This document shows, piece by piece, positions 25,542-52,125 of a DNA stretch of 64,000 nucleotides. Location: NCBI GenBank assembly GCA_027859085.1, contig JAQIBJ010000013.1, positions 1,372-65,371 of the forward strand, in the 5' to 3' direction. Origin of the DNA: Mycoplasmatota bacterium. GTDB taxonomy: Bacteria; Bacillota_I; Bacilli_A; Izemoplasmatales; Hujiaoplasmataceae. The position numbers and the translations under genes are program-made. Position 1 is the first letter of the stretch. Every line of letters begins with the position of its first letter. Under the pieces are notes generated by a model. That model was not told where the DNA came from, ran no database searches, and was given only the letters and a program-made list of their open reading frames with translations.

Positions 25542-28190
25542 TTAAAACAATCTTTGTTGAATGATGTCATCGTCATCTTCTTCATCTTCTTTATCTTCAT
25601 CCTCTATAGTATCCGTTGATTCATCAACTTCGTTTGGATCATCATCAGAAATTGATATGATTTTTTCTAATTCAGACATCACATCATCACTATCTTCTTC
25701 ATCTTCTTCAATCACTTCGTCTATTAAGTTCACCAATATTTCATGAGTTTCTGGATATCTGTCTTTATCAATCATCAAGTTCGTTGGATGATCTTCTTTA
25801 GCAAATATTGGAATTCCATTTTCATAACGGTCTGGTTTAAGGTCTGGTCCTAAAATACATTTGTCTTTATTCTTTGCGGACAAGCGTATATTAATAAATT
25901 CTTTTAATCTAAAAATATTCTCTACATTCATACCAACAACTTTGTAAGGGTTCGATTTAATCAACTTAAACACCCTTTTACCTTTGGCAGGTCGGTGTGA
26001 AATGTCAATATTCGCAGTAGATTCTCTCTTTAAACCACCACGGTTTGTTAGCATCAATAATTCATCTTTATTAATCGCTGTTGCAAATTTAGCACCGACT
26101 AATTGATCTTTTCTTAAATTAATACCTTTAACACCTTTGGCCATCAAAGATTGAATTGATATTTCTTCAATTTCATATTTTATAACGTAGCTGTTTTTTG
26201 AAACCATAACAACATATTGGTCATATTCTTCTTGTAAATCCACTGAAACCAACTCATTAACTTTAGAACATGATAACACACTAAAAGTCTTATTAATCCT
26301 TGTTTTAACAAATTCTTCAAGAAGAACTCTTTTTATCGCTCCATCTTGGTTTGCAACCATCACATAACGTGATGCATCAAACTCATCAATAACAAGGTAA
26401 TCTATCACTCTTTCTTTATTTTTTAATGTTGCATAATTACCAACATAATCACCTAAATCTTTCCATTTAGCGTCCATCACTTTATGAACTGGTAGATTAA
26501 TGAAATTACCTAAATTGGTGAATAGTAATAAAGTATCTCTTGTATTGACATCAGTTTTCTTAAGAATAATATCATTTTCTTTTAATCCCGTTGAACCTTG
26601 AGTGGCTTGATAAGATTTCATTGATGAACGTTTAATGTATCCGTCTCTTGAGATAACAACCATAACATTTTCATTTTCTATTAGCTCTTGTTCATCAAAC
26701 TCGATTTTTTTAATTTCACCTTTAATAACAGACAATCTAGGCGTTGGATATTTTTCTACCAATTCCTTGATTTCATTAATGATGACAGTTTCTAATTCGT
26801 TTTCATTATTTAATATTTTTGTTAAACGTTTTATTTCTTTAGATAAACTAATAGATTCTTTTTCCATTTCAGTTACATCAGTTGATGATAAACGATACAA
26901 TCTTAATGAAACGATTGCATCTGCTTGTTCATTGGTAAATTTATATTTCTTAATTAATTTACCTTCAGCATCTTTTTTACCCGTTGACTGACGAATCATT
27001 CTAATCACTTCATCTAAGACACTCACCATTTTTAAGAAACCTAAAACAATGTGTTTTCTTTTTTCAAAACGTTGTAATTCAAAATTCGAACGATTACGAA
27101 TGACTTCTTTTTGATGAAGAATATATTCATTTAATATTTCTTCTAAAGATAATAGTCTTGGACTTCTTTGACTAATCGCAACCATATTATAATTAAATGT
27201 TTTTGATAAATCTGTATTCTTATGTAAATACGCCAAAATAACATCACTTGCGATGTCTTTTTTGAGTTTAATTTCAATTCTAATACCATCACGGTCAGAT
27301 ATATCATTGACTTCAACGATACCATCAATTTTTTTCTTTGTGGCAATATCACTGATTTTTCTAACCAAATCTGCTTTATTAACCTCAAAAGGCAGTTCAG
27401 TCACTATTAATTCAGTATCATTCACTTCAACTTTACTTCTGATTACAACTCGACCACGCCCAGTTTTAAAGGCTTTTTCAATTTCATCAATACCTTCAAC
27501 AATTCCGCCTGTAGGAAAATCTGGTCCTTTAATAAATTTTAATAAATCGTTAAAAGTTGTCTCTTTATGTTCTAATTTATAGATTAATGCATTCATCACT
27601 TCATTTAAATTATGTGGGGGAATGTTTGTTGCATATCCAGTTGCCATTCCTGAGCCACCATTAATCAAAAGGTTTGGAAACTTAGCAGGTAATACAACAG
27701 GTTCTAATTCATAATCATCGAAGTTTGGAATAAAGTTTACAGTCTTTTTATCAATATCTTGTAACAATGCTTCTGAAAACACAGTCAATCTGGCTTCAGT
27801 ATAACGCATTGCCGCAGCTGGATCATTATCTACTGAACCATTATTTCCGTGCATGTCTATTAAAAGGTTTCTCATTTTCCAATGTTGAGACATACGAACC
27901 ATGGCTTCATAAACACTAGAATCACCATGTGGATGATACTTACCAATGACTTCACCTACGATTCTCGCAGATTTTTTAAATGCTTTAGTTGAACCCATAC
28001 CAAGTTCATTCATTGCAAATAATATTCTTCTTTGAACTGGTTTTAAACCATCTCTAACATCAGGTAATGCACGTTCTTGGATAATATATTTTGAATAGCG
28101 ACTAAACCTTTCACCAACAATATCTTCTAAATTCATGGAAATAATATTTTCTACATAATCATCAAGTTTTTTCTTAACTGATTTAGCCAT
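25542..28190 (-). CDS. parC: DNA topoisomerase IV subunit A
   Basis: [27 protein letters not shown]; no GyrA box; follows parE; long acidic tail. Confidence 0.93.
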
Positions 28191-30124
28191 TATTTGCCCT
28201 CCTCAATGATGAAGTCATCTTCATTAACAAATGATACATTGTTATCAATCCATTCTTTTCTTGGTTCTACTTTATCGCCCATTAATACTGAAATACGTTG
28301 ATCAGCTTCAGCCAATGATTCAATATTTACTTCGATTAAAGAACGGGTTCTTGGATCCATGGTTGTTTCCCATAGTTGACTAGAATTCATTTCTCCTAAA
28401 CCTTTATATCGTTGAATTGAATATTTCTTATATCGTTTACTAAGAATTTCTCTTTCTTCTTCAGTCCAAGCATATTCATACTTTTTAGAACTTGTTGCCG
28501 AAATCTTATACAATGGTGGTAAGGCAATAAATAGTTTTCCTTCTTCAATTAATTCTGGCATATATCTAAAGAAGAATGTAATTAATAAAACTTGAATATG
28601 TGCACCATCAGTATCCGCATCGGTCATAATAATGACTTTATTATAATTTGATTTTTTAACTTTAAAATCGCTACCAATACCAGCACCTATTGTTGAGATG
28701 ATGGTTGAAATTTCTTCATTTTTAAAAACATCTTCCATTTTTTGTTTCTCAGCATTGATGACTTTTCCTCTCAATGGTAAGATAGCTTGGAATTTTCGAT
28801 CTCTACCTTGCTTTGCTGAACCACCAGCCGAATCTCCCTCAACTAAAAACAACTCTTTTATAGAAGCATCTTTAGATGAAGCAGGCGCTAATTTCCCAGA
28901 AAGAACAGTATCTTTCTTTTTAATCTTCTTAACAAGTCTTGCATCTTCTCTGGCTTTTCTAGCTGCTTCCCATGCGTTTCTTGCTTTAATTGATTTAGAT
29001 ATTAATTCTTGTGATGTTTGAGGATTCTCCATTAAATAAGCCGCAATATTATCATAAACTACCGCTTCAACTGCAGCTCTAGCTTCATTGGTACCTAATT
29101 TATTCTTGGTTTGACCTTCAAACTGTAATAAATATTCAGGTATTCTCACAGAAATAATTGAGGTCATACCTTCTCTAACATGAGTCCCTTCTAAAGAATT
29201 ATCTCGCTCTTTAATCAGGTTCATTTTTCTTCCGTATTCATTATAAGCTTTTGTAAAAGCCGATTTGAACCCAGTTTCATGAGTTCCACCATCTTTTGTT
29301 CTTACATTATTAACAAACGATACAATATTCTCTGAGTAAGCTTTTGTATATTGAAATGAAACCTCAACTTCAATATCATTGCTTTTTCCATTAAAGTAAA
29401 CAGGTTTATTTAAAGTTGATTTTCCTTTATTGATGTATTCAACATATTGTCTAATACCTTTTTCAAATTGAAAGATTTGTTTTTCACGACTTCGATGATC
29501 AATAACTTCCATTTTTAATCTTTTGATTAAAAATGCGTTTTCTCTAACACGTTCTTCTATCATCTTATAATTAAATAAAGTCGTACTAAAAATAGTTTGA
29601 TCTGGTTTAAACCAAACTTCAGTTCCGCTTTTTCTTGTGTTACCAGTTTCTTTTAAAAGGTAAACAGGTTTTCCACCGTTTTCAAATCGCATAGAGTAAC
29701 TCTTACCATCACGATATACATTCACTTCTAAAAATTCAGATAAGGCATTAACGACTGACGCACCAACACCATGTAGACCACCAGCAACTTTATAGGCTCC
29801 ATTCGCCGAAAACTTTCCACCTGCATGTAGTTTTGTGAAAATTAAATCAACACCACTCAACCCAGATTCATGTTTATCAACAGGCATACCTCGACCGTCA
29901 TCACTGACTTTTATTGAATTGTCTTCATTGATTTCAACTTTTATATAACTACCATACCCTGCTAAAACTTCATCAATAGAGTTATCTATAATTTCCCATA
30001 CCAAGTGATGTAGTCCTCTGGTGTCTGTTGACCCGATGTACATCGCTGGTCTTTTTCTAACAGCTTCTAATCCTTCTAGTATTTGTAGTGATTTTGCATT
30101 ATATGCATTAGACTTTGCGCTCAT
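28190..30124 (-). CDS. parE: DNA topoisomerase IV subunit B
   Basis: [35 protein letters not shown]; divergent from plsY as in Firmicutes. Confidence 0.93.
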
Positions 30125-43693: not shown

Positions 43694-44281
43694 ATGAAAC
43701 TATATCAGTTTTTGGCTTTGTCATCAGATTGGATAATCTTAGGTGCCACTATTGGTGTCGCAATATTACTCATTATCTTAAGTATCTATTTTTATAATAA
43801 AAATGTAAATGTTAGAAAATATAAACGAAAACTTAAGTACATTAATAAAACAAAAGAAAAGAAATACAATGCAAATGTATTTATTGACCAAATATACAAT
43901 AACTTTGTGACTGACGATACCAATACTTTTGAATCACTAAAAAAGAAGGGTAAAAGAAAAGTCAAAAAGTACATAAAATTCTATCAAAGATCATTGCATG
44001 ATTTGGTTGAGGCTAAAAGTAATATTTCTCCTAATAAAAAGCAAAACAAATTAGTCTTCATCTTTAAAAACAAAAGCAACCAAAATATTGGAAAGTTTTA
44101 TGTCTCACAAAAATTAAAAAAATTAAAAAAACAGATTGATAAACACCAATTATTATTCGATACGCTTGCATATCTATATGAATTACCACAATATATTGAT
44201 ACAAAGAAAGCATATCACCTAGAAAATCACGACAATCAAAATGTCATTACTTATCAAATTGTTGAAGAGATAAAAAAATAG
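43694..44281 (+). CDS. Hypothetical protein with one N-terminal TM helix and a Lys-rich cytoplasmic domain
   Basis: AAGGAG RBS; 195-aa ORF followed by a terminator. Confidence 0.75.
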   Translation: MKLYQFLALSSDWIILGATIGVAILLIILSIYFYNKNVNVRKYKRKLKYINKTKEKKYNANVFIDQIYNNFVTDDTNTFESLKKKGKRKVKKYIKFYQRSLHDLVEAKSNISPNKKQNKLVFIFKNKSNQNIGKFYVSQKLKKLKKQIDKHQLLFDTLAYLYELPQYIDTKKAYHLENHDNQNVITYQIVEEIKK

Positions 44282-46309: not shown

Positions 46310-46366
46310 ATAACCACCTCAATTACAATATACAACTAATAATCATAACATAAAATGAAAAATTCT

Positions 46367-46395
46367 AAAAATAAAAGACCAAAAAAATTGGTCTT
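46367..46395 (-). terminator. Terminator immediately after jetC
   Basis: AAGACCAA-N5-TTGGTCTT followed by TTATTTTT on the minus strand, directly after the stop codon. Confidence 0.7.
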
Positions 46396-49300
46396 CTATG
46401 AATCGTGTTTATTCAATTGCATCGTTCTAGCTTTCTTACCATCTCTAAGTGTAATGATGGTTGTATCTGTAAATTTCTGCAATATTTCCATTTTTTGAGG
46501 TGGCGTTGATAACATAATCTGTACTGGTAATTTTTGAATGAATTTCATCATGGCTTTAATTCTTGATGAATCCATCTTATCAAATACCTCATCAAATAAT
46601 ATTAATCCAATTGGCTCTTGATTCACTTTTCTAGATGCTTGTTCAAAAACTCTTACAAATGATGCGAGTGTCGCAACATAGAAAGGTACTTGAGTTTCAC
46701 CACCAGATTTTTCTTTAAATACTTTAGAATAATTAATTTTATCGCCTGAAGTATTGGTAATTAAAATATCATAATCCATATAGGTACGGTAATCTGTAAA
46801 CTTATTAACTGTACCTTTTGAGTTTAGATCCTCTGATGCTAAATTAATAAATAACTCTTCTAATTGTCTTTGATATTTCATTTCAAAATCATAATTAAAG
46901 ATTTCTTCACCTGATATAATCGCTTCATCAGACAAAACCATGTCATAATAATCGCCATATTCTTTACTTTTCGGGAAGATAAATTCGTAACTGTCTTCAC
47001 CAAAACGAATATTTTCTAAAGTTTCATTAATCTTTTTAATCTCTTCTTGAGCTGAAATAATATAGTTTCTTAATTTAGACATGAAATCTTCTTTGAATAG
47101 TTTTTCCGCAACTTCTCTCGCTTCTCTAACTTTTGATTCATATTTCACAAGTTCAGACTTCACAAGTTTATTTCTTTCGTCTATATATTCATTGATATAT
47201 TCCAAACCAAATTGATAACTTAAATTATATTTTTGAGTATATTGAATTTGTTTGGTTCTTAATGAGTCCTCTAAATGATTGATGTTATTTAGTTCTCTAG
47301 TAATTTTAACGGTGTAATTTTCTAAGATATCCTGTATATTTTGTTGACTGGCTTCTTCTTTAAACAATGATTCTGCTTTTTCTCTTAATCCAGGATTGTC
47401 TTCGGTTTGCTGGTTAATCTCTTTATTCACATCATTTAAATTGGTTTCATATTCCAATAATCGATCATGAACATTACTTTCACGATTATTTAATGATCCA
47501 TTCTTCTCATAAGCTTTTTGTCTACTTGCATTATAATCTCTGATTTCTTCGCGAATATTTTCATATTCTACTCTTAAATCCTTTAGACTTTCTTGAGGTA
47601 GATTACGTTTTTTCTCTGCCAATGCTTTTCTTTTATCTTTTAAGGTATCAACTGAATAATAATTCTTAAGCATAGAAATATATTGACTCAAATTTAGTTT
47701 TTTGATTAACGTATTCTCTTCGCTAATATTAGACATTGCATTATTAATTCTTTGATGATCTAAACTAAGTTCCTTCGCTTTTTTTCTCCAAGTTTCTAAC
47801 TGTGCGATTTTAGCGTTTTTTCCAATAAAAGGTTTATCTCTTAATTTAAATAATGATCTAACAGTAAATGATCTATAAACCATCCCACTTAAAGTAATCG
47901 CTTGAGAGTAATTTTCTAGTTCATTAACGTTATCAACCATAATTAAGTTTCCGCAAGTCATGTTGATAAAATGTTTTGCATCTTTATTATCAGAATCAAT
48001 GATAGATGCTAAAGAATTAGATCTGAATTGATCAAATTTTTGAATTTTCTTGGTATTGACTAATCCAATCCCATAAATATTCAATGAATCTTTGACTTGA
48101 TTATACACACTTAAAGCTAAATCAAAATATCTTGGCTCTATGATTAAATTAAATCGCTGTCTACCTAAGTAATCTTCAATTGTATCTTGCCACTTAGGGT
48201 CATTTACTTCTAGCAATTCACACAATATATGAACATTGATATCAATGTTATATTGTTGTTTAACGCCATCAATAATTGCACTTTGTAACTTAAGTGTCAT
48301 TGGGTCGTATTTAAGTTTATTATTTTCTAATCCTTTTAACGTTTGATAAACTTCATTAATCTCAGTAACCAACCCTTGTTTAACATGTTGATGCTTTCCA
48401 TATTCTGAGCGATTATGATTAACAATATCATCTAACTCTTTTTCCAATTGAATGAGTTTTAATTTTGTGCTTTCATAACTTTCATCATCAATATTTACTA
48501 AATCTACTTTAGATAACTGTTTATAAATTTTTTGATTATATTCACTGTTTAAATCTTCAATGACTTCATTCATCGTCTTCGCTTTGTTTTGTGCATATTG
48601 ACGCATTTCAGCTTGTTCATTGATTTTTTTAGTTAAGTCATTCATTTCTTTATCGTAGATTTCAGATGCTTTAAATGTATCATTATTCGATAACATCGAA
48701 TATACTTCTTTTGAGCGTTCATCTAAAATTTCTAATTGTTCTTCTAACTCAGAAAGCAACTTTGAGTTTTGTTCTTTATCTAAAATGACTTTTTCTAATT
48801 TCTTATTTTCTTTTTCTATAGAATCTTTAATGTTTTCGATCTCTAATAATTTTAAAAAGTATTCATAAAAATCTTTTTGTGATATGTTTTCTTGTATTTC
48901 TTCATAAGTTTGTGCAATATCATCTAAATCATTGACTTTTTCTTTAATGATTTTCAATGTGGCTTCTAAATCTTTATATGCACGGATTGATTCCTTGATT
49001 GATTCAACATCTAAAACTCGTTCTTCTAACAAGTATTTATAAATGAATTCTTTTACATCTGATATAGGTTTAAAAGCTAGTGCTTTTGGCAATAAAGAAA
49101 AGTAATTTTCATTAATTGAACCAAATCGTTTTCTAAAAGAATATTTTGCTTCTTTTCTAGTCAAATGAACTTTATTTGCTTGTTTTGATTTTTTGAAGTT
49201 GATGGTTGTTAAAATGATACCAACTTCATCAACAAATAAATCATCGTTTATTTTATCATCAAATTCATAGAACAATACTTTTGGTGGAACAATTTCTCCA

Positions 49301-49638
49301 ACGATGTCTATCACAGTTCCCACGGTAAAATATTCATCTTTTACCTCATCATAAAATTCTAAAGCGATGTGACCTGTTGTATCACCTGCTCTTAAGTATT
49401 CTTGATTATCGATACCTAATTTACATTTAACATAACCTCTTAAATCACGTTTACTCTTATCATTAGCGGCTAAGTTAAAGATTTGATCACCTGCAGTTAA
49501 TACAAAAGCAATGGCATCAACAATCGTTGATTTACCTGTCGCGTTTTGTCCTGTAATTAAAGTGTTGTTTTTAATAACAATTGTTTCATTGGCAAAATAA
49601 TGCCAATTGATTAATCTTACTTTAGTTAACTTCTTCAT
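46396..49638 (-). CDS. jetC: SMC-family ATPase, Wadjet JetC/MksB-like
   Basis: LINWH, Walker A GQNATGKST, long coiled coils, DYRTY, signature KSGGETQ, Walker B ILFDEVFDKMD. Confidence 0.88.
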   Translation of the reverse strand: MKKLTKVRLINWHYFANETIVIKNNTLITGQNATGKSTIVDAIAFVLTAGDQIFNLAANDKSKRDLRGYVKCKLGIDNQEYLRAGDTTGHIALEFYDEVKDEYFTVGTVIDIVGEIVPPKVLFYEFDDKINDDLFVDEVGIILTTINFKKSKQANKVHLTRKEAKYSFRKRFGSINENYFSLLPKALAFKPISDVKEFIYKYLLEERVLDVESIKESIRAYKDLEATLKIIKEKVNDLDDIAQTYEEIQENISQKDFYEYFLKLLEIENIKDSIEKENKKLEKVILDKEQNSKLLSELEEQLEILDERSKEVYSMLSNNDTFKASEIYDKEMNDLTKKINEQAEMRQYAQNKAKTMNEVIEDLNSEYNQKIYKQLSKVDLVNIDDESYESTKLKLIQLEKELDDIVNHNRSEYGKHQHVKQGLVTEINEVYQTLKGLENNKLKYDPMTLKLQSAIIDGVKQQYNIDINVHILCELLEVNDPKWQDTIEDYLGRQRFNLIIEPRYFDLALSVYNQVKDSLNIYGIGLVNTKKIQKFDQFRSNSLASIIDSDNKDAKHFINMTCGNLIMVDNVNELENYSQAITLSGMVYRSFTVRSLFKLRDKPFIGKNAKIAQLETWRKKAKELSLDHQRINNAMSNISEENTLIKKLNLSQYISMLKNYYSVDTLKDKRKALAEKKRNLPQESLKDLRVEYENIREEIRDYNASRQKAYEKNGSLNNRESNVHDRLLEYETNLNDVNKEINQQTEDNPGLREKAESLFKEEASQQNIQDILENYTVKITRELNNINHLEDSLRTKQIQYTQKYNLSYQFGLEYINEYIDERNKLVKSELVKYESKVREAREVAEKLFKEDFMSKLRNYIISAQEEIKKINETLENIRFGEDSYEFIFPKSKEYGDYYDMVLSDEAIISGEEIFNYDFEMKYQRQLEELFINLASEDLNSKGTVNKFTDYRTYMDYDILITNTSGDKINYSKVFKEKSGGETQVPFYVATLASFVRVFEQASRKVNQEPIGLILFDEVFDKMDSSRIKAMMKFIQKLPVQIMLSTPPQKMEILQKFTDTTIITLRDGKKARTMQLNKHDS

Positions 49639-50227
49639 GAGCATCACTTCCTGTTTTGTTTTCAATATGATTAATGATGTTATACACATCATTAATGGTT
49701 TGCGTATTAATGGCTAAGAGAATCGTTGGATAAATGATGATAGGTGTTGATGCTTTTGTAATATCTCCAAGTGTCTCAATCAAATTGTTACGTTTAAATA
49801 ATCTTAGTATCTTAACCAAATCAGTTTTGTTGATTTTTTTCTTTAATTCTAATGAATCGTAATAATCATGTATTTCATCTACTTTAATCACAACATTGTC
49901 ATTGATTGATGTTTTAACCAAATGTTCATGGAACAAGATTCTTAAAATAAGCAAAATAATTGATTCATCTTTTTTAAGTCTTAATAGATTATTGTTTTCA
50001 CGATGAACTAATTGTACTGCGCCCATTTCTCGATCCAAATTTAATTCAAAATCCATCACATCAAAGTACTCATCAAAATATTGTTTAAAGCTGATAATAA
50101 AATAATACATTTCCTTATTATCTTCTTTATCTTTTGCTAAGAAACTGTTTGATAAAAGTCTTAAACAAGTTTTAGCAAATAACTTTTTTTGTCCTACATT
50201 TAGCTCTTCAAAATTTTCTAGTATCAT
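49622..50227 (-). CDS. jetB: Wadjet JetB/MksE-like KITE protein (DUF4194-like)
   Basis: About 200 aa; RLKKDESIILLILR and IIIYPTI segments; lies between the JetA-like and SMC genes. Confidence 0.8.
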   Translation of the reverse strand: MILENFEELNVGQKKLFAKTCLRLLSNSFLAKDKEDNKEMYYFIISFKQYFDEYFDVMDFELNLDREMGAVQLVHRENNNLLRLKKDESIILLILRILFHEHLVKTSINDNVVIKVDEIHDYYDSLELKKKINKTDLVKILRLFKRNNLIETLGDITKASTPIIIYPTILLAINTQTINDVYNIINHIENKTGSDAHEEVN

Positions 50228-50228
50228 T

Positions 50229-51632
50229 TTAATTTTCCCCCTTAATGATTTCAAAATCATCGATAATAAATCTTGAATTGTCAATCTTATTATCTAGTGG
50301 CTGAATGAAATAATTCATTTCTACTCCTGCATAAACCAATATATATAATAATCTTAAAATGCCTTCATCACTCATGTCATCATTAATAATTTCACTTGCT
50401 TTAATCAATGCATTCTTTCTAAAATACTCATCAAGATATTTCTGAATCACTTCTTCAGAATATTGAATCTCAAATTCTTTATAAAATTCATCTCTCAAAA
50501 TTTGATCAAAACGATTGTCATTCTCTTCTAAAAATTGATTTTCTATGTGTTTATAGATTCCTCTTGGTGTATATAATGATTCTTTAGAAATTTGTAGGTA
50601 TGTAGACAATGTAAACATTGGCCTAATCGTATTCATTGCTATATTTGTTTGATTATCTTTTATGCTTTCAGCAGTAAAGCTTAGTATTTTCGATAGTTTT
50701 GATATAACATTTTCATCATCTGATAATAAGAATTTAATTTTAGCGATGGTCGTATTGACATAGACTTTATTCTTATGATCAATTTCATCAATAATATACG
50801 AAACAGAATTATAGATATCAATAATATCGTCTATTTTTTTATTGACCCTCATCATCGCCATATCGTAATTGTTATGAGCCTTTACCAAATACTCTTTTGC
50901 GAGTGTTTCCATAATAAATTTATCTTCTTGTATTTCTTCTAATTTACGAATAATGTCTGCTCGATATTTATTAATATTATCCGAAGTCTTTAATCTTCTA
51001 TAAGCCTTATCCATTAATTCAGCCTTATAATTCACCAAATAATTAATTAAATCCTTGATTTCAGAATGATCAACTATCGTTTTAATATAATACTTTAAAC
51101 GAGAATCCAACTTTCTAATTTCTCTTACAAAAGCCAATGTGTTTTTATAGACTTGGTCTAAAACCATACCATATTCACCATAGTCGCTTTTTAACAAAGA
51201 ATATGAAGTGTAGATATACCCTCTAAACTCATGGCCATCATCCTCAGTATTATCATAAAAACTGTCATTTGATATTTCTTGTAAAGCTTCAATGATGGTA
51301 ATTGAATAATCTCGGAAATTTAAAATTTCTTCATAATTATTATTGACATCAATATCAATCCATTCGGTTTTTTCTAATCTTCTTATTATTTGATTAGCAC
51401 GGTCTCTGTTCGTTAATTCAGTTTCTTCATCTTGATCTTCTAACTCCTCTTCTAAAGGATTCAAATCTAAATAATCTTCTATTGCTTGTCTTGCAATATT
51501 TTTATCCATCCCTAATATAGATCCTTGTTCATAAACCCTAAAAAGTTCAAGAAGACAATTCACATAAATCGATCTATTTTTACCTGATAATAAGTTAAAG
51601 AAATTATTAGGTATAACATCAAATACATTCAT
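50229..51632 (-). CDS. jetA: Wadjet JetA/MksF-like kleisin (DUF5716-like)
   Basis: FDVIPNNFFNLLSGKNR.IY, IIRRLEKTEWI winged helix, LKTSDN...YR, SLYTPR; first gene of the SMC trio. Confidence 0.8.
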   Translation of the reverse strand: MNVFDVIPNNFFNLLSGKNRSIYVNCLLELFRVYEQGSILGMDKNIARQAIEDYLDLNPLEEELEDQDEETELTNRDRANQIIRRLEKTEWIDIDVNNNYEEILNFRDYSITIIEALQEISNDSFYDNTEDDGHEFRGYIYTSYSLLKSDYGEYGMVLDQVYKNTLAFVREIRKLDSRLKYYIKTIVDHSEIKDLINYLVNYKAELMDKAYRRLKTSDNINKYRADIIRKLEEIQEDKFIMETLAKEYLVKAHNNYDMAMMRVNKKIDDIIDIYNSVSYIIDEIDHKNKVYVNTTIAKIKFLLSDDENVISKLSKILSFTAESIKDNQTNIAMNTIRPMFTLSTYLQISKESLYTPRGIYKHIENQFLEENDNRFDQILRDEFYKEFEIQYSEEVIQKYLDEYFRKNALIKASEIINDDMSDEGILRLLYILVYAGVEMNYFIQPLDNKIDNSRFIIDDFEIIKGEN

Positions 51633-51643
51633 TTCATCACTTC

Positions 51644-51994
51644 CTATTCATATCGTTTGTATTTAAATTTACCACTCACAAGGGTGGTTAATGTATTTTC
51701 TAAAATCAGCCAGTCTTTTCGAAATTGTTTCAACGATTTTTTACCCGTATCATTTAAGTAATAATAACGACGCAACATACCTTTTTTATTTTTTTGCTTA
51801 TAACTAGATATTTTACCATCTTTTGACAATCTTTTTAAGGCAATATATAGTGTCGCTTCATTCAAATTAATCGAATCATCACTAACATCTTCTATTATTT
51901 TTGCAATTTCGTAACCATAACTATCATATTTTTCTAAAATCGACAAAATAATATAATCAGTAAAACCTCTAACATGTTCGCTAGAATTAGCCAT
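51644..51994 (-). CDS. PadR-family transcriptional regulator
   Basis: ILSIL...SYGYEI, EATLYIALKRL, RRYYYL..TG; ATG 51994 after GGAGGTGA. Confidence 0.93.
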   Translation of the reverse strand: MANSSEHVRGFTDYIILSILEKYDSYGYEIAKIIEDVSDDSINLNEATLYIALKRLSKDGKISSYKQKNKKGMLRRYYYLNDTGKKSLKQFRKDWLILENTLTTLVSGKFKYKRYE

Positions 51995-52012
51995 TATTAT
52001 CACCTCCATTAC

Positions 52013-52057
52013 ATACTTAAACTATTTATACATAAATTGTTTATACTTAACCTGTTT
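52013..52057. repeat. Three tandem 15-bp direct repeats in the padR-jetABC leader
   Basis: ATACTTAAACTATTT / ATACATAAATTGTTT / ATACTTAACCTGTTT. Confidence 0.75.
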
Positions 52058-52059
52058 AT

Positions 52060-52088
52060 ATTATAATACAACAAGTAGAATTTGTAAA
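52060..52088 (-). promoter_or_regulatory. Sigma-A promoter of padR-jetABC
   Basis: TTTACA (52088-52083), 17 bp, TATAAT (52065-52060). Confidence 0.7.
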
Positions 52089-52097
52089 TAGAAAAAC

Positions 52098-52125
52098 AAA
52101 AAAATACTGGAAAATTTCCAGTATT
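52098..52125 (-). terminator. dnaJ terminator
   Basis: AATACTGGAAA/TTTCCAGTATT stem followed by a T-run. Confidence 0.85.

Follow-up and report, generated by a model that had tools for sequence, protein, structure and literature searches.

A nuclease-free Wadjet-like JetABC operon as a probable stand-in for Smc-ScpAB in Izemoplasmatales

Type I Wadjet combines the JetA kleisin, the JetB KITE subunit and the JetC SMC ATPase with the JetD Toprim nuclease (DUF3322/DUF2220), which raises the question of what such a motor does in a host where the nuclease is missing. We analysed the padR-jetA-jetB-jetC operon on a 64,000-nucleotide stretch of contig JAQIBJ010000013.1 (the window), from the metagenome-assembled genome, 87 % complete, of a wall-less-type bacterium of the Izemoplasmatales. 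The operon encodes the three motor subunits and no JetD. Because it is core, single-copy, syntenic and under purifying selection in a lineage with no detected Smc-ScpAB, JetABC is most likely a domesticated MksBEF-like condensin, which would fold and separate the host chromosome in place of Smc-ScpAB and back up ParABS, with PadR buffering its dose. An earlier note on this DNA, made from the letters alone, had raised a domesticated condensin as one of two options, and the comparative evidence speaks well for it. Families are numbered f1, f2, f3 and so on, and our own genome (G000) is counted with f1.

A type I Wadjet-like motor

Pfam assigned PadR to the winged helix-turn-helix family PF03551 (E 2.5e-19), JetA to PF18982 (DUF5716; 4.6e-70) and JetB to DUF4194 (9.1e-28), while the PADLOC type I models identified JetA1 (2.3e-107), JetB1 (3.7e-57) and JetC1 (2.9e-299), so that the profile checks proposed earlier placed jetABC in the type I Wadjet families. 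JetC retains the Walker A (residues 30-38), signature (977-983) and Walker B/D-loop (1016-1023) motifs already read from the letters, almost all invariant in 16 aligned orthologues. The solved structures nearest to it by sequence are JetC of Escherichia coli and Pseudomonas aeruginosa (1e-18), against a weak match to MukB (E 0.004). All top 15 Foldseek ranks for the JetA AlphaFold model (predicted local distance difference test score 72, 31-row alignment) were JetA and MukF chains with low TM-scores, and the likeness to MukF lies at the level of the fold, with 11-14 % identity. The operon is thus not MukBEF by close sequence orthology to MukB, MukE or MukF. The thresholds used for MksBEF (FEB) operons, in the excerpt of PMC7617805 that we draw on, are MksB >890 aa with Walker motifs, MksF 400-1200 aa and MksE 150-800 aa; here the F-E-B genes are co-directional, encode 467, 201 and 1080 aa with Walker motifs, and have no flanking MksG (padR upstream, rsmE downstream). 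Judged by its sequence, padR-jetABC is a type I Wadjet-like JetABC motor in a lineage without the JetD nuclease.

Search for JetD

Pfam JetD_C and DUF3322 had no match in our genome at its 87 % completeness, JetD_C was above cut-off in 0 of 61 relatives, and five single-contig f1 genomes and the 31 flanking ORFs scanned likewise yielded no JetD. A profile built from 13 JetD proteins, those encoded just after the closest relatives of JetC, reached a best E of 0.41 in our genome, against 1e-64 to 1e-84 for three plasmid JetD controls. It matched 3 of 158 genomes of the order, each time adjoining a different jet locus, and the single weak Pfam JetD match among the 61 relatives also belongs to a different Wadjet, on a small contig. 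The absence of a JetD-like gene claimed for the window therefore extends to the genome, and the cognate jetD at another site, which the earlier note would have counted against its reading, was looked for and not found.

That note's second option was a defence sensor with an unlinked effector. This could be some nuclease other than JetD, or else JetD supplied by a mobile Wadjet passing through. We consider this very unlikely. JetD does occur in the three genomes just mentioned, five genomes of the class carry a JetD-less copy plus a separate jetABCD, and the JetB N-terminal helix is retained. Against this, 155 of the 158 order genomes have no JetD match, those that do have it beside a different jet locus, and no conserved candidate effector flanks the operon. 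One genome (G079) holds two systems. The one at the dnaJ-rsmE site is without JetD and has 67 % JetC identity; the other, separate from it, is a complete jetABCD with a jetABC of its own and is only 32 % identical in JetC. An alternative effector adjoining jetC was considered and rejected: the neighbours are family-specific housekeeping genes, some without a family, and across families include thioredoxin-like, SepF, C1 peptidase, phosphotransferase system enzyme I and GlmU-like repeat proteins. A short contig of one f1 genome (L032, G012:C12) carries a second, divergent Wadjet-like locus, in which an SMC C-terminal fragment is followed by a 292-aa JetD-like gene.

Core status, selection and descent

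JetA was detected in 68 of the 70 remaining f1 genomes, in 9 of 10 from f3 and in 0 of 77 from f2, and JetC, searched in a subset, in 35/36, 9/10 and 0/14 respectively. Carriage of the operon by the order as a whole is not supported, given its absence from f2. The genes are single-copy in the core genome and the operon is present in complete genomes of named strains. Among 40 loci fetched for synteny comparison, rsmE or mtaB lay within three genes downstream in every f1 locus for which a full jetC had been called and sequence beyond it was available (24 of 24), in keeping with the dnaJ-padR-jetABC-rsmE order proposed for checking in related genomes. The f3 orthologues occupy the same chromosomal site; wherever padR was called in f1 (27 loci) it lies 5′ of jetA, and it does so in 0 of 7 f3 loci with upstream sequence. 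The site is empty in 5/5 f2 genomes, which read dnaJ-rsmE-mtaB (2) or dnaJ-mtaB (3). As a mere location between dnaJ and rsmE, the earlier designation "prmA position" stands. Displacement of prmA by the operon is unsupported: prmA is below the family cut-off in 4/4 Izemoplasmatales tested (it is present in one outgroup), and f2 joins dnaJ straight to rsmE or mtaB.

Ratios of nonsynonymous to synonymous substitution (dN/dS) for jetABC against six congeners were 0.022-0.079, like those of era, phoH and dnaJ and mostly under those of rsmE and ybeY; these are approximate values, with dS mostly >1, two jetB values not computable and a broken jetA (G004) dropped. Mean identity to 17 other f1 loci was 63-67 % for the jet genes, 68 % for dnaJ and 56 % for mtaB. 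Of the 11 well-supported splits of the JetA+JetC tree, 10 recur in the dnaJ+mtaB+rsmE tree (18 loci), none conflicts with a well-supported split, and r = 0.88. Relaxed selection, named in advance as a sign of decay, was not seen. An ordinary Wadjet decaying after loss of jetD could draw on jet genes broken in four draft genomes and on the absence from f2, and is hardly credible beside dN/dS of 0.02-0.08, which largely refutes it, an operon kept almost universally in two families and ATPase motifs that do not vary among the 16 aligned JetC.

Absence of Smc-ScpAB and the proposed function

The suggested search for smc-scpAB elsewhere gave no ScpA among 61 relatives and no ScpB among 4 genomes, the latter with a positive outgroup control. 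SMC hinge matches occurred in 2 of 158 order genomes, one being the hinge of JetC and the other a 1231-aa frame in an f2 draft. In five near-complete genomes no top SMC_N match had the size of a canonical Smc; identities were read from protein lengths, which fit RecF, RecN, ABC ATPases and JetC. Since no Smc-ScpAB was detected in f1 and f3, JetABC is the only kleisin-SMC (condensin-type) complex detected in these families, and f2 has none. Mutual exclusion of JetABC and Smc inside the order was considered and rejected, f2 having neither. The f2 frame (G152:C29:1920-2282), the only one of canonical Smc size among the 158 genomes, may be contamination or transfer. ParB is retained in f1 and f2 (in our genome at G000:C74:2138-2419); no site within one mismatch of a parS consensus was found in our assembly, where parS may be divergent or unassembled.

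By analogy with characterised relatives, JetA2B4C4 dimers would load on the chromosome independently of any sequence signal and extrude loops along it bidirectionally. Together with the retained ParB system, this would compact sister chromosomes and separate them, and DNA would not be cleaved.

Several observations weigh against the domesticated-condensin reading. The sister family f2 has jetA in 0/77, ScpA in 0/20 and Smc in 1/77 genomes, and f12, f19 and f20 resemble it (JetC 1/20, 0/21 and 1/7; ScpA 0), so these mostly lack both systems and the complex is dispensable at the scale of lineages; the four families appear to be condensin-free bacteria. Family f7 keeps ScpA (Smc-ScpAB) in 12/12 genomes and yet has jetABC without JetD in 8 of 15 loci, so loss of JetD does not require loss of Smc. 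The flanking genes are linked to the jet genes, which makes the congruent trees compatible with transfer of the whole block. Broken or shortened genes in the four drafts (jetA in G004 and G015, jetC in G026 and G009) may reflect error or decay. Finally, JetD docks on JetC and possibly on the JetB N-terminal helix, according to an excerpt of 10.1101/2023.11.03.565488, and loss of this helix was not seen: it is not shortened in f1.

Lineages that manage without a condensin also leave room for a nuclease-free anti-plasmid factor, in which JetABC, once it has fully extruded a small circle, would stall there and keep the uncut circle from being replicated, expressed or partitioned, somewhat like Smc5/6. 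Its Wadjet ancestry fits, as does the stalling and accumulation of JetABC on tethered plasmids without JetD (PMC10889018, in excerpt). In Corynebacterium glutamicum, on the other hand, deletion of mksG equals deletion of mksB in its effect on plasmids (PMC10123090, in excerpt), and the operon has a housekeeping-like rate, a fixed site and vertical descent, unlike the JetD-linked copies, which mix host families. We regard this alternative as unlikely.

PadR and the predicted operator array

Three palindromic TTATRYATAA-like boxes with a 15-bp pitch lie between the padR promoter and its ribosome-binding site. The same anatomy recurs in 54 distinct padR upstream regions, which hold 146 boxes 3′ of the -10 element; 76 of 92 spacings are exactly 15 bp and 9 more are multiples of 15, and the first box begins 15 bp past the start of the -10 element in 51 of the 54. 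When our genome was scanned with a box matrix (built with the window's own boxes included), the padR promoter was the only three-box array. A wider PadR regulon was considered and dropped: there is no second three-box array, and two-box matches at 15 bp (3) equal those at other spacings (3-5).

Given the position of the boxes between promoter and ribosome-binding site, autorepression is predicted, the array being the putative PadR operator. PadR dimers would bind the palindromes and repress their own promoter, holding the level of JetABC steady, to judge from the anatomy of the region. The transcriptional regulation proposed in the earlier note is thereby retained as a prediction backed by a conserved array, and narrowed, since padR and its boxes are confined to one family (f1).

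A repressor of its own, whose multi-box array recurs in 54 upstream regions, and a place next to a heat-shock operon would also suit a motor induced by stress or a signal. DNA damage, supercoiling stress or a growth transition would lift repression by PadR, and the motor would act in repair or protection of the nucleoid, not in routine segregation. This seems rather improbable to us: the same-site f3 orthologues have no padR in 7/7 loci with upstream sequence, the array occurs nowhere else in the genome and gives no sign of a regulon, and a terminator separates dnaJ from the operon.

JetC across the class

In an even sample of 350 genomes of the class, 12 families (172 genomes) were without ScpA. 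Of these 172 genomes, 81 carried this JetC subfamily, compared with 13 of the 177 genomes in families that have ScpA; kin are not independent in these counts. In a quick RpoB tree of 30 genomes, 11 ScpA-less families fell in two starred clades, f19 being left out. We fetched 80 JetC loci from families other than f1 and f3, with f15, presumably Acholeplasmataceae, represented by 20 of 24 genomes. JetD followed jetC in 15 of the 80 (one locus stops at a contig edge), namely in 9 of 18 loci in ScpA-bearing genomes vs 6 of 62 in ScpA-less ones, and five of those six are second copies.

In a 100-row JetC FastTree the JetD-less clades were faithful to family: f1+f3+f28 (we take f28 to be Anaeroplasma-like), f5, f15, f26+(f25,f10), an f7 clade and a long-branched f10 trio. 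The clade f26+(f25,f10) repeats the RpoB branching. JetD-linked copies, by contrast, mix host families (e.g. f25 with f28, f7 with f20). The JetD label changes at least seven times over the tree, with JetD-less and JetD-linked clades interleaved. Approximately unbiased tests on 34 selected rows (LG+G4, quick) rejected monophyly both of the full set of 20 JetD-less rows (p 1.4e-6) and of the 13 that belong to RpoB clade A (p 2e-51); the groups were set by the JetD trait after the first tree was seen, and the data contain long branches. For 16 JetD-linked loci, trees of JetD and of JetC were nearly congruent, so repeated loss of JetD is favoured over repeated gain. The JetD-bearing relatives of nuclease-free core copies are ~30-37 % identical in JetC and sometimes sit in the same genome.

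We give an even chance to a broader reading, in which the path that led to MukBEF was taken repeatedly among wall-less and related Bacilli. Smc-ScpAB would have disappeared from two clades, and JetD from at least four separate type I Wadjet systems (f1+f3+f28; f5; f15; f26+f25+f10), which would have become core and taken over chromosome folding. Family f7, with Smc-ScpAB, a JetD-less copy and often a full JetABCD, would be an intermediate, and the f1 motor would have gained an autorepressor with a tunable array of operator boxes.

Among the f7 loci (L204-L218), five genomes hold both JetD-less and JetD-linked jet loci, and six JetD-less copies are followed, in head-on orientation, by a conserved 295-aa gene without a known family. 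In f28 (L241-L249) the cell-division gene sepF directly follows or overlaps jetC in 9/9 JetD-less loci, at the usual place of jetD, an adjacency that may couple the motor to cell division.

Relation to known systems

The literature is drawn on here in excerpts of the papers cited. JetABC of P. aeruginosa extrudes loops symmetrically as a dimer, equally well without JetD, while cleavage needs JetD (PMC10889018). The type I JetABCD systems of E. coli (8AS8/8Q72) and P. aeruginosa PA14 (8DK1-3) and the plasmid-borne ones of Cohnella, Rossellomorea and Butyrivibrio have the same A-B-C order, families and sizes; they are patchy and have JetD, whereas the present operon is without it, core-fixed and vertical. 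MksBEF of P. aeruginosa promotes segregation and extends cis contacts to longer range, and it becomes critical for segregation once ParABS is gone (10.1101/2020.05.18.101659). It is likewise a JetD-less, chromosomal, Wadjet-type complex with a proposed origin by JetD loss (10.1101/2020.05.18.101659; PMC10586767), but its lineage is another one, in which it is a back-up beside Smc-ScpAB, whereas JetABC is the only condensin-type complex detected here and its operon is led by padR. A domestication hypothesis derives both MukBEF and MksBEF from Wadjet, with loss of the nuclease locking the motor into segregation (10.1101/2025.03.10.642339; PMC10586767).

Bürmann et al. 2025 (PMC7617805) map the loss of MksG across the Wadjet group, and their Data S1 contains FEB operons in Anaeroplasma bactoclasticum and four 'Tenericutes bacterium' genomes, and one FEBG. 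These have the mksF-mksE-mksB order without mksG in common with ours, and one Data S1 row has the f1 gene sizes and jetB-jetC overlap, compared by description and not by sequence. In the excerpt of that paper the operons are catalogued only, with no tie to Smc-ScpAB absence, core status, selection or a PadR operator. Our literature search, in which subscription journals were largely outside coverage, found no paper on the operon's function, core status, link to Smc-ScpAB absence or PadR array. The domestication idea and FEB operons in Tenericutes were therefore known already; the core status, the link to Smc-ScpAB absence and the PadR array were not found in print.

MukBEF of the gamma-proteobacteria is likewise a nuclease-free complex of the Wadjet group, and replaced Smc-ScpAB lineage-wide. 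MukF is among the top fold matches of JetA, but MukB matches JetC only at E 0.004. The defensive ancestor of MukBEF is too distant to compare, whereas here JetD-bearing relatives survive in the same class. The switch by nuclease loss appears replicated with such relatives at hand, which makes the transition from defence to housekeeping testable; it also points to sister families without any detectable condensin, and annotators of defence systems may count JetD-less operons as Wadjet.

Layout of the locus and neighbouring genes

The four ORFs are intact, all on the minus strand and as tightly packed as first described (Table 1), with intergenic gaps of 11 (padR/jetA), 1 (jetA/jetB) and -17 nt (jetB/jetC); likely start codons were chosen from ribosome-binding sites and comparison with relatives. 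The operon's own promoter after the dnaJ terminator was recovered and is conserved in upstream regions of relatives, while promoter-like matches region-wide are not above chance (45 found vs 62 expected). The predicted terminator at the jetC stop also holds, though the terminator scanner missed it: it forms an 11-bp hairpin with a T-run (-14.0 kcal/mol over a stretch of 63 nt), and folding energies of -12 kcal/mol or lower were obtained for 22 of the 33 jetC 3′ ends that were examined. It opens the interval to rsmE, which is 86 bp as reported. The GC content of the operon is 27-29 %, similar to the flanking DNA. Metatranscriptomes yielded one 171-base contig on the jetC 3′ end in 1 of 3 runs, which is uninformative on expression either way.

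Table 1 Features of the padR-jetABC locus, in window coordinates
Feature	Position	Strand	Remarks
Hairpin + T-run at jetC stop	46366..46398	-	predicted operon terminator; occupies usual jetD place
jetC/mksB	46396..49638	-	SMC ATPase, 1080 aa; Walker A, signature, Walker B/D-loop intact
jetB/mksE	49622..50227	-	KITE subunit, 201 aa
jetA/mksF	50229..51632	-	kleisin, 467 aa
padR	51644..51994	-	short PadR-family winged-helix regulator, 116 aa; likely start, longest ORF would start at 52009
Three-box array	52011..52050	-	predicted PadR operator array; boxes 52050-52041, 52035-52026, 52020-52011
TTTACA-17-TATAAT	52060..52088	-	sigma-70-type promoter; 11/12 matches; just after dnaJ terminator
dnaJ-ending hairpin + T-run	52093..52125	-	intrinsic-terminator-like, stem 52125-52103; separates heat-shock operon from padR-jetABC

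A subset of f1 loci (L043, L046, L049-L054, L056, L065) carries a gene of 150-169 aa between jetC and rsmE, thioredoxin-like in 3 of 8 scanned, and these loci are without the jetC terminator hairpin. Among 32 other ORFs scanned from the first 40 kb of the window, those assigned to a family were ordinary housekeeping genes and several had no family. The topoisomerase IV genes parE-parC lie at 25542-30124 of the window, ~16 kb downstream of jetC; E. coli MukB binds topoisomerase IV. Between mtaB and phoH, a gene at 43694-44281 (plus strand) is conserved across f1; its 195-aa product begins with a hydrophobic stretch and belongs to no known family.

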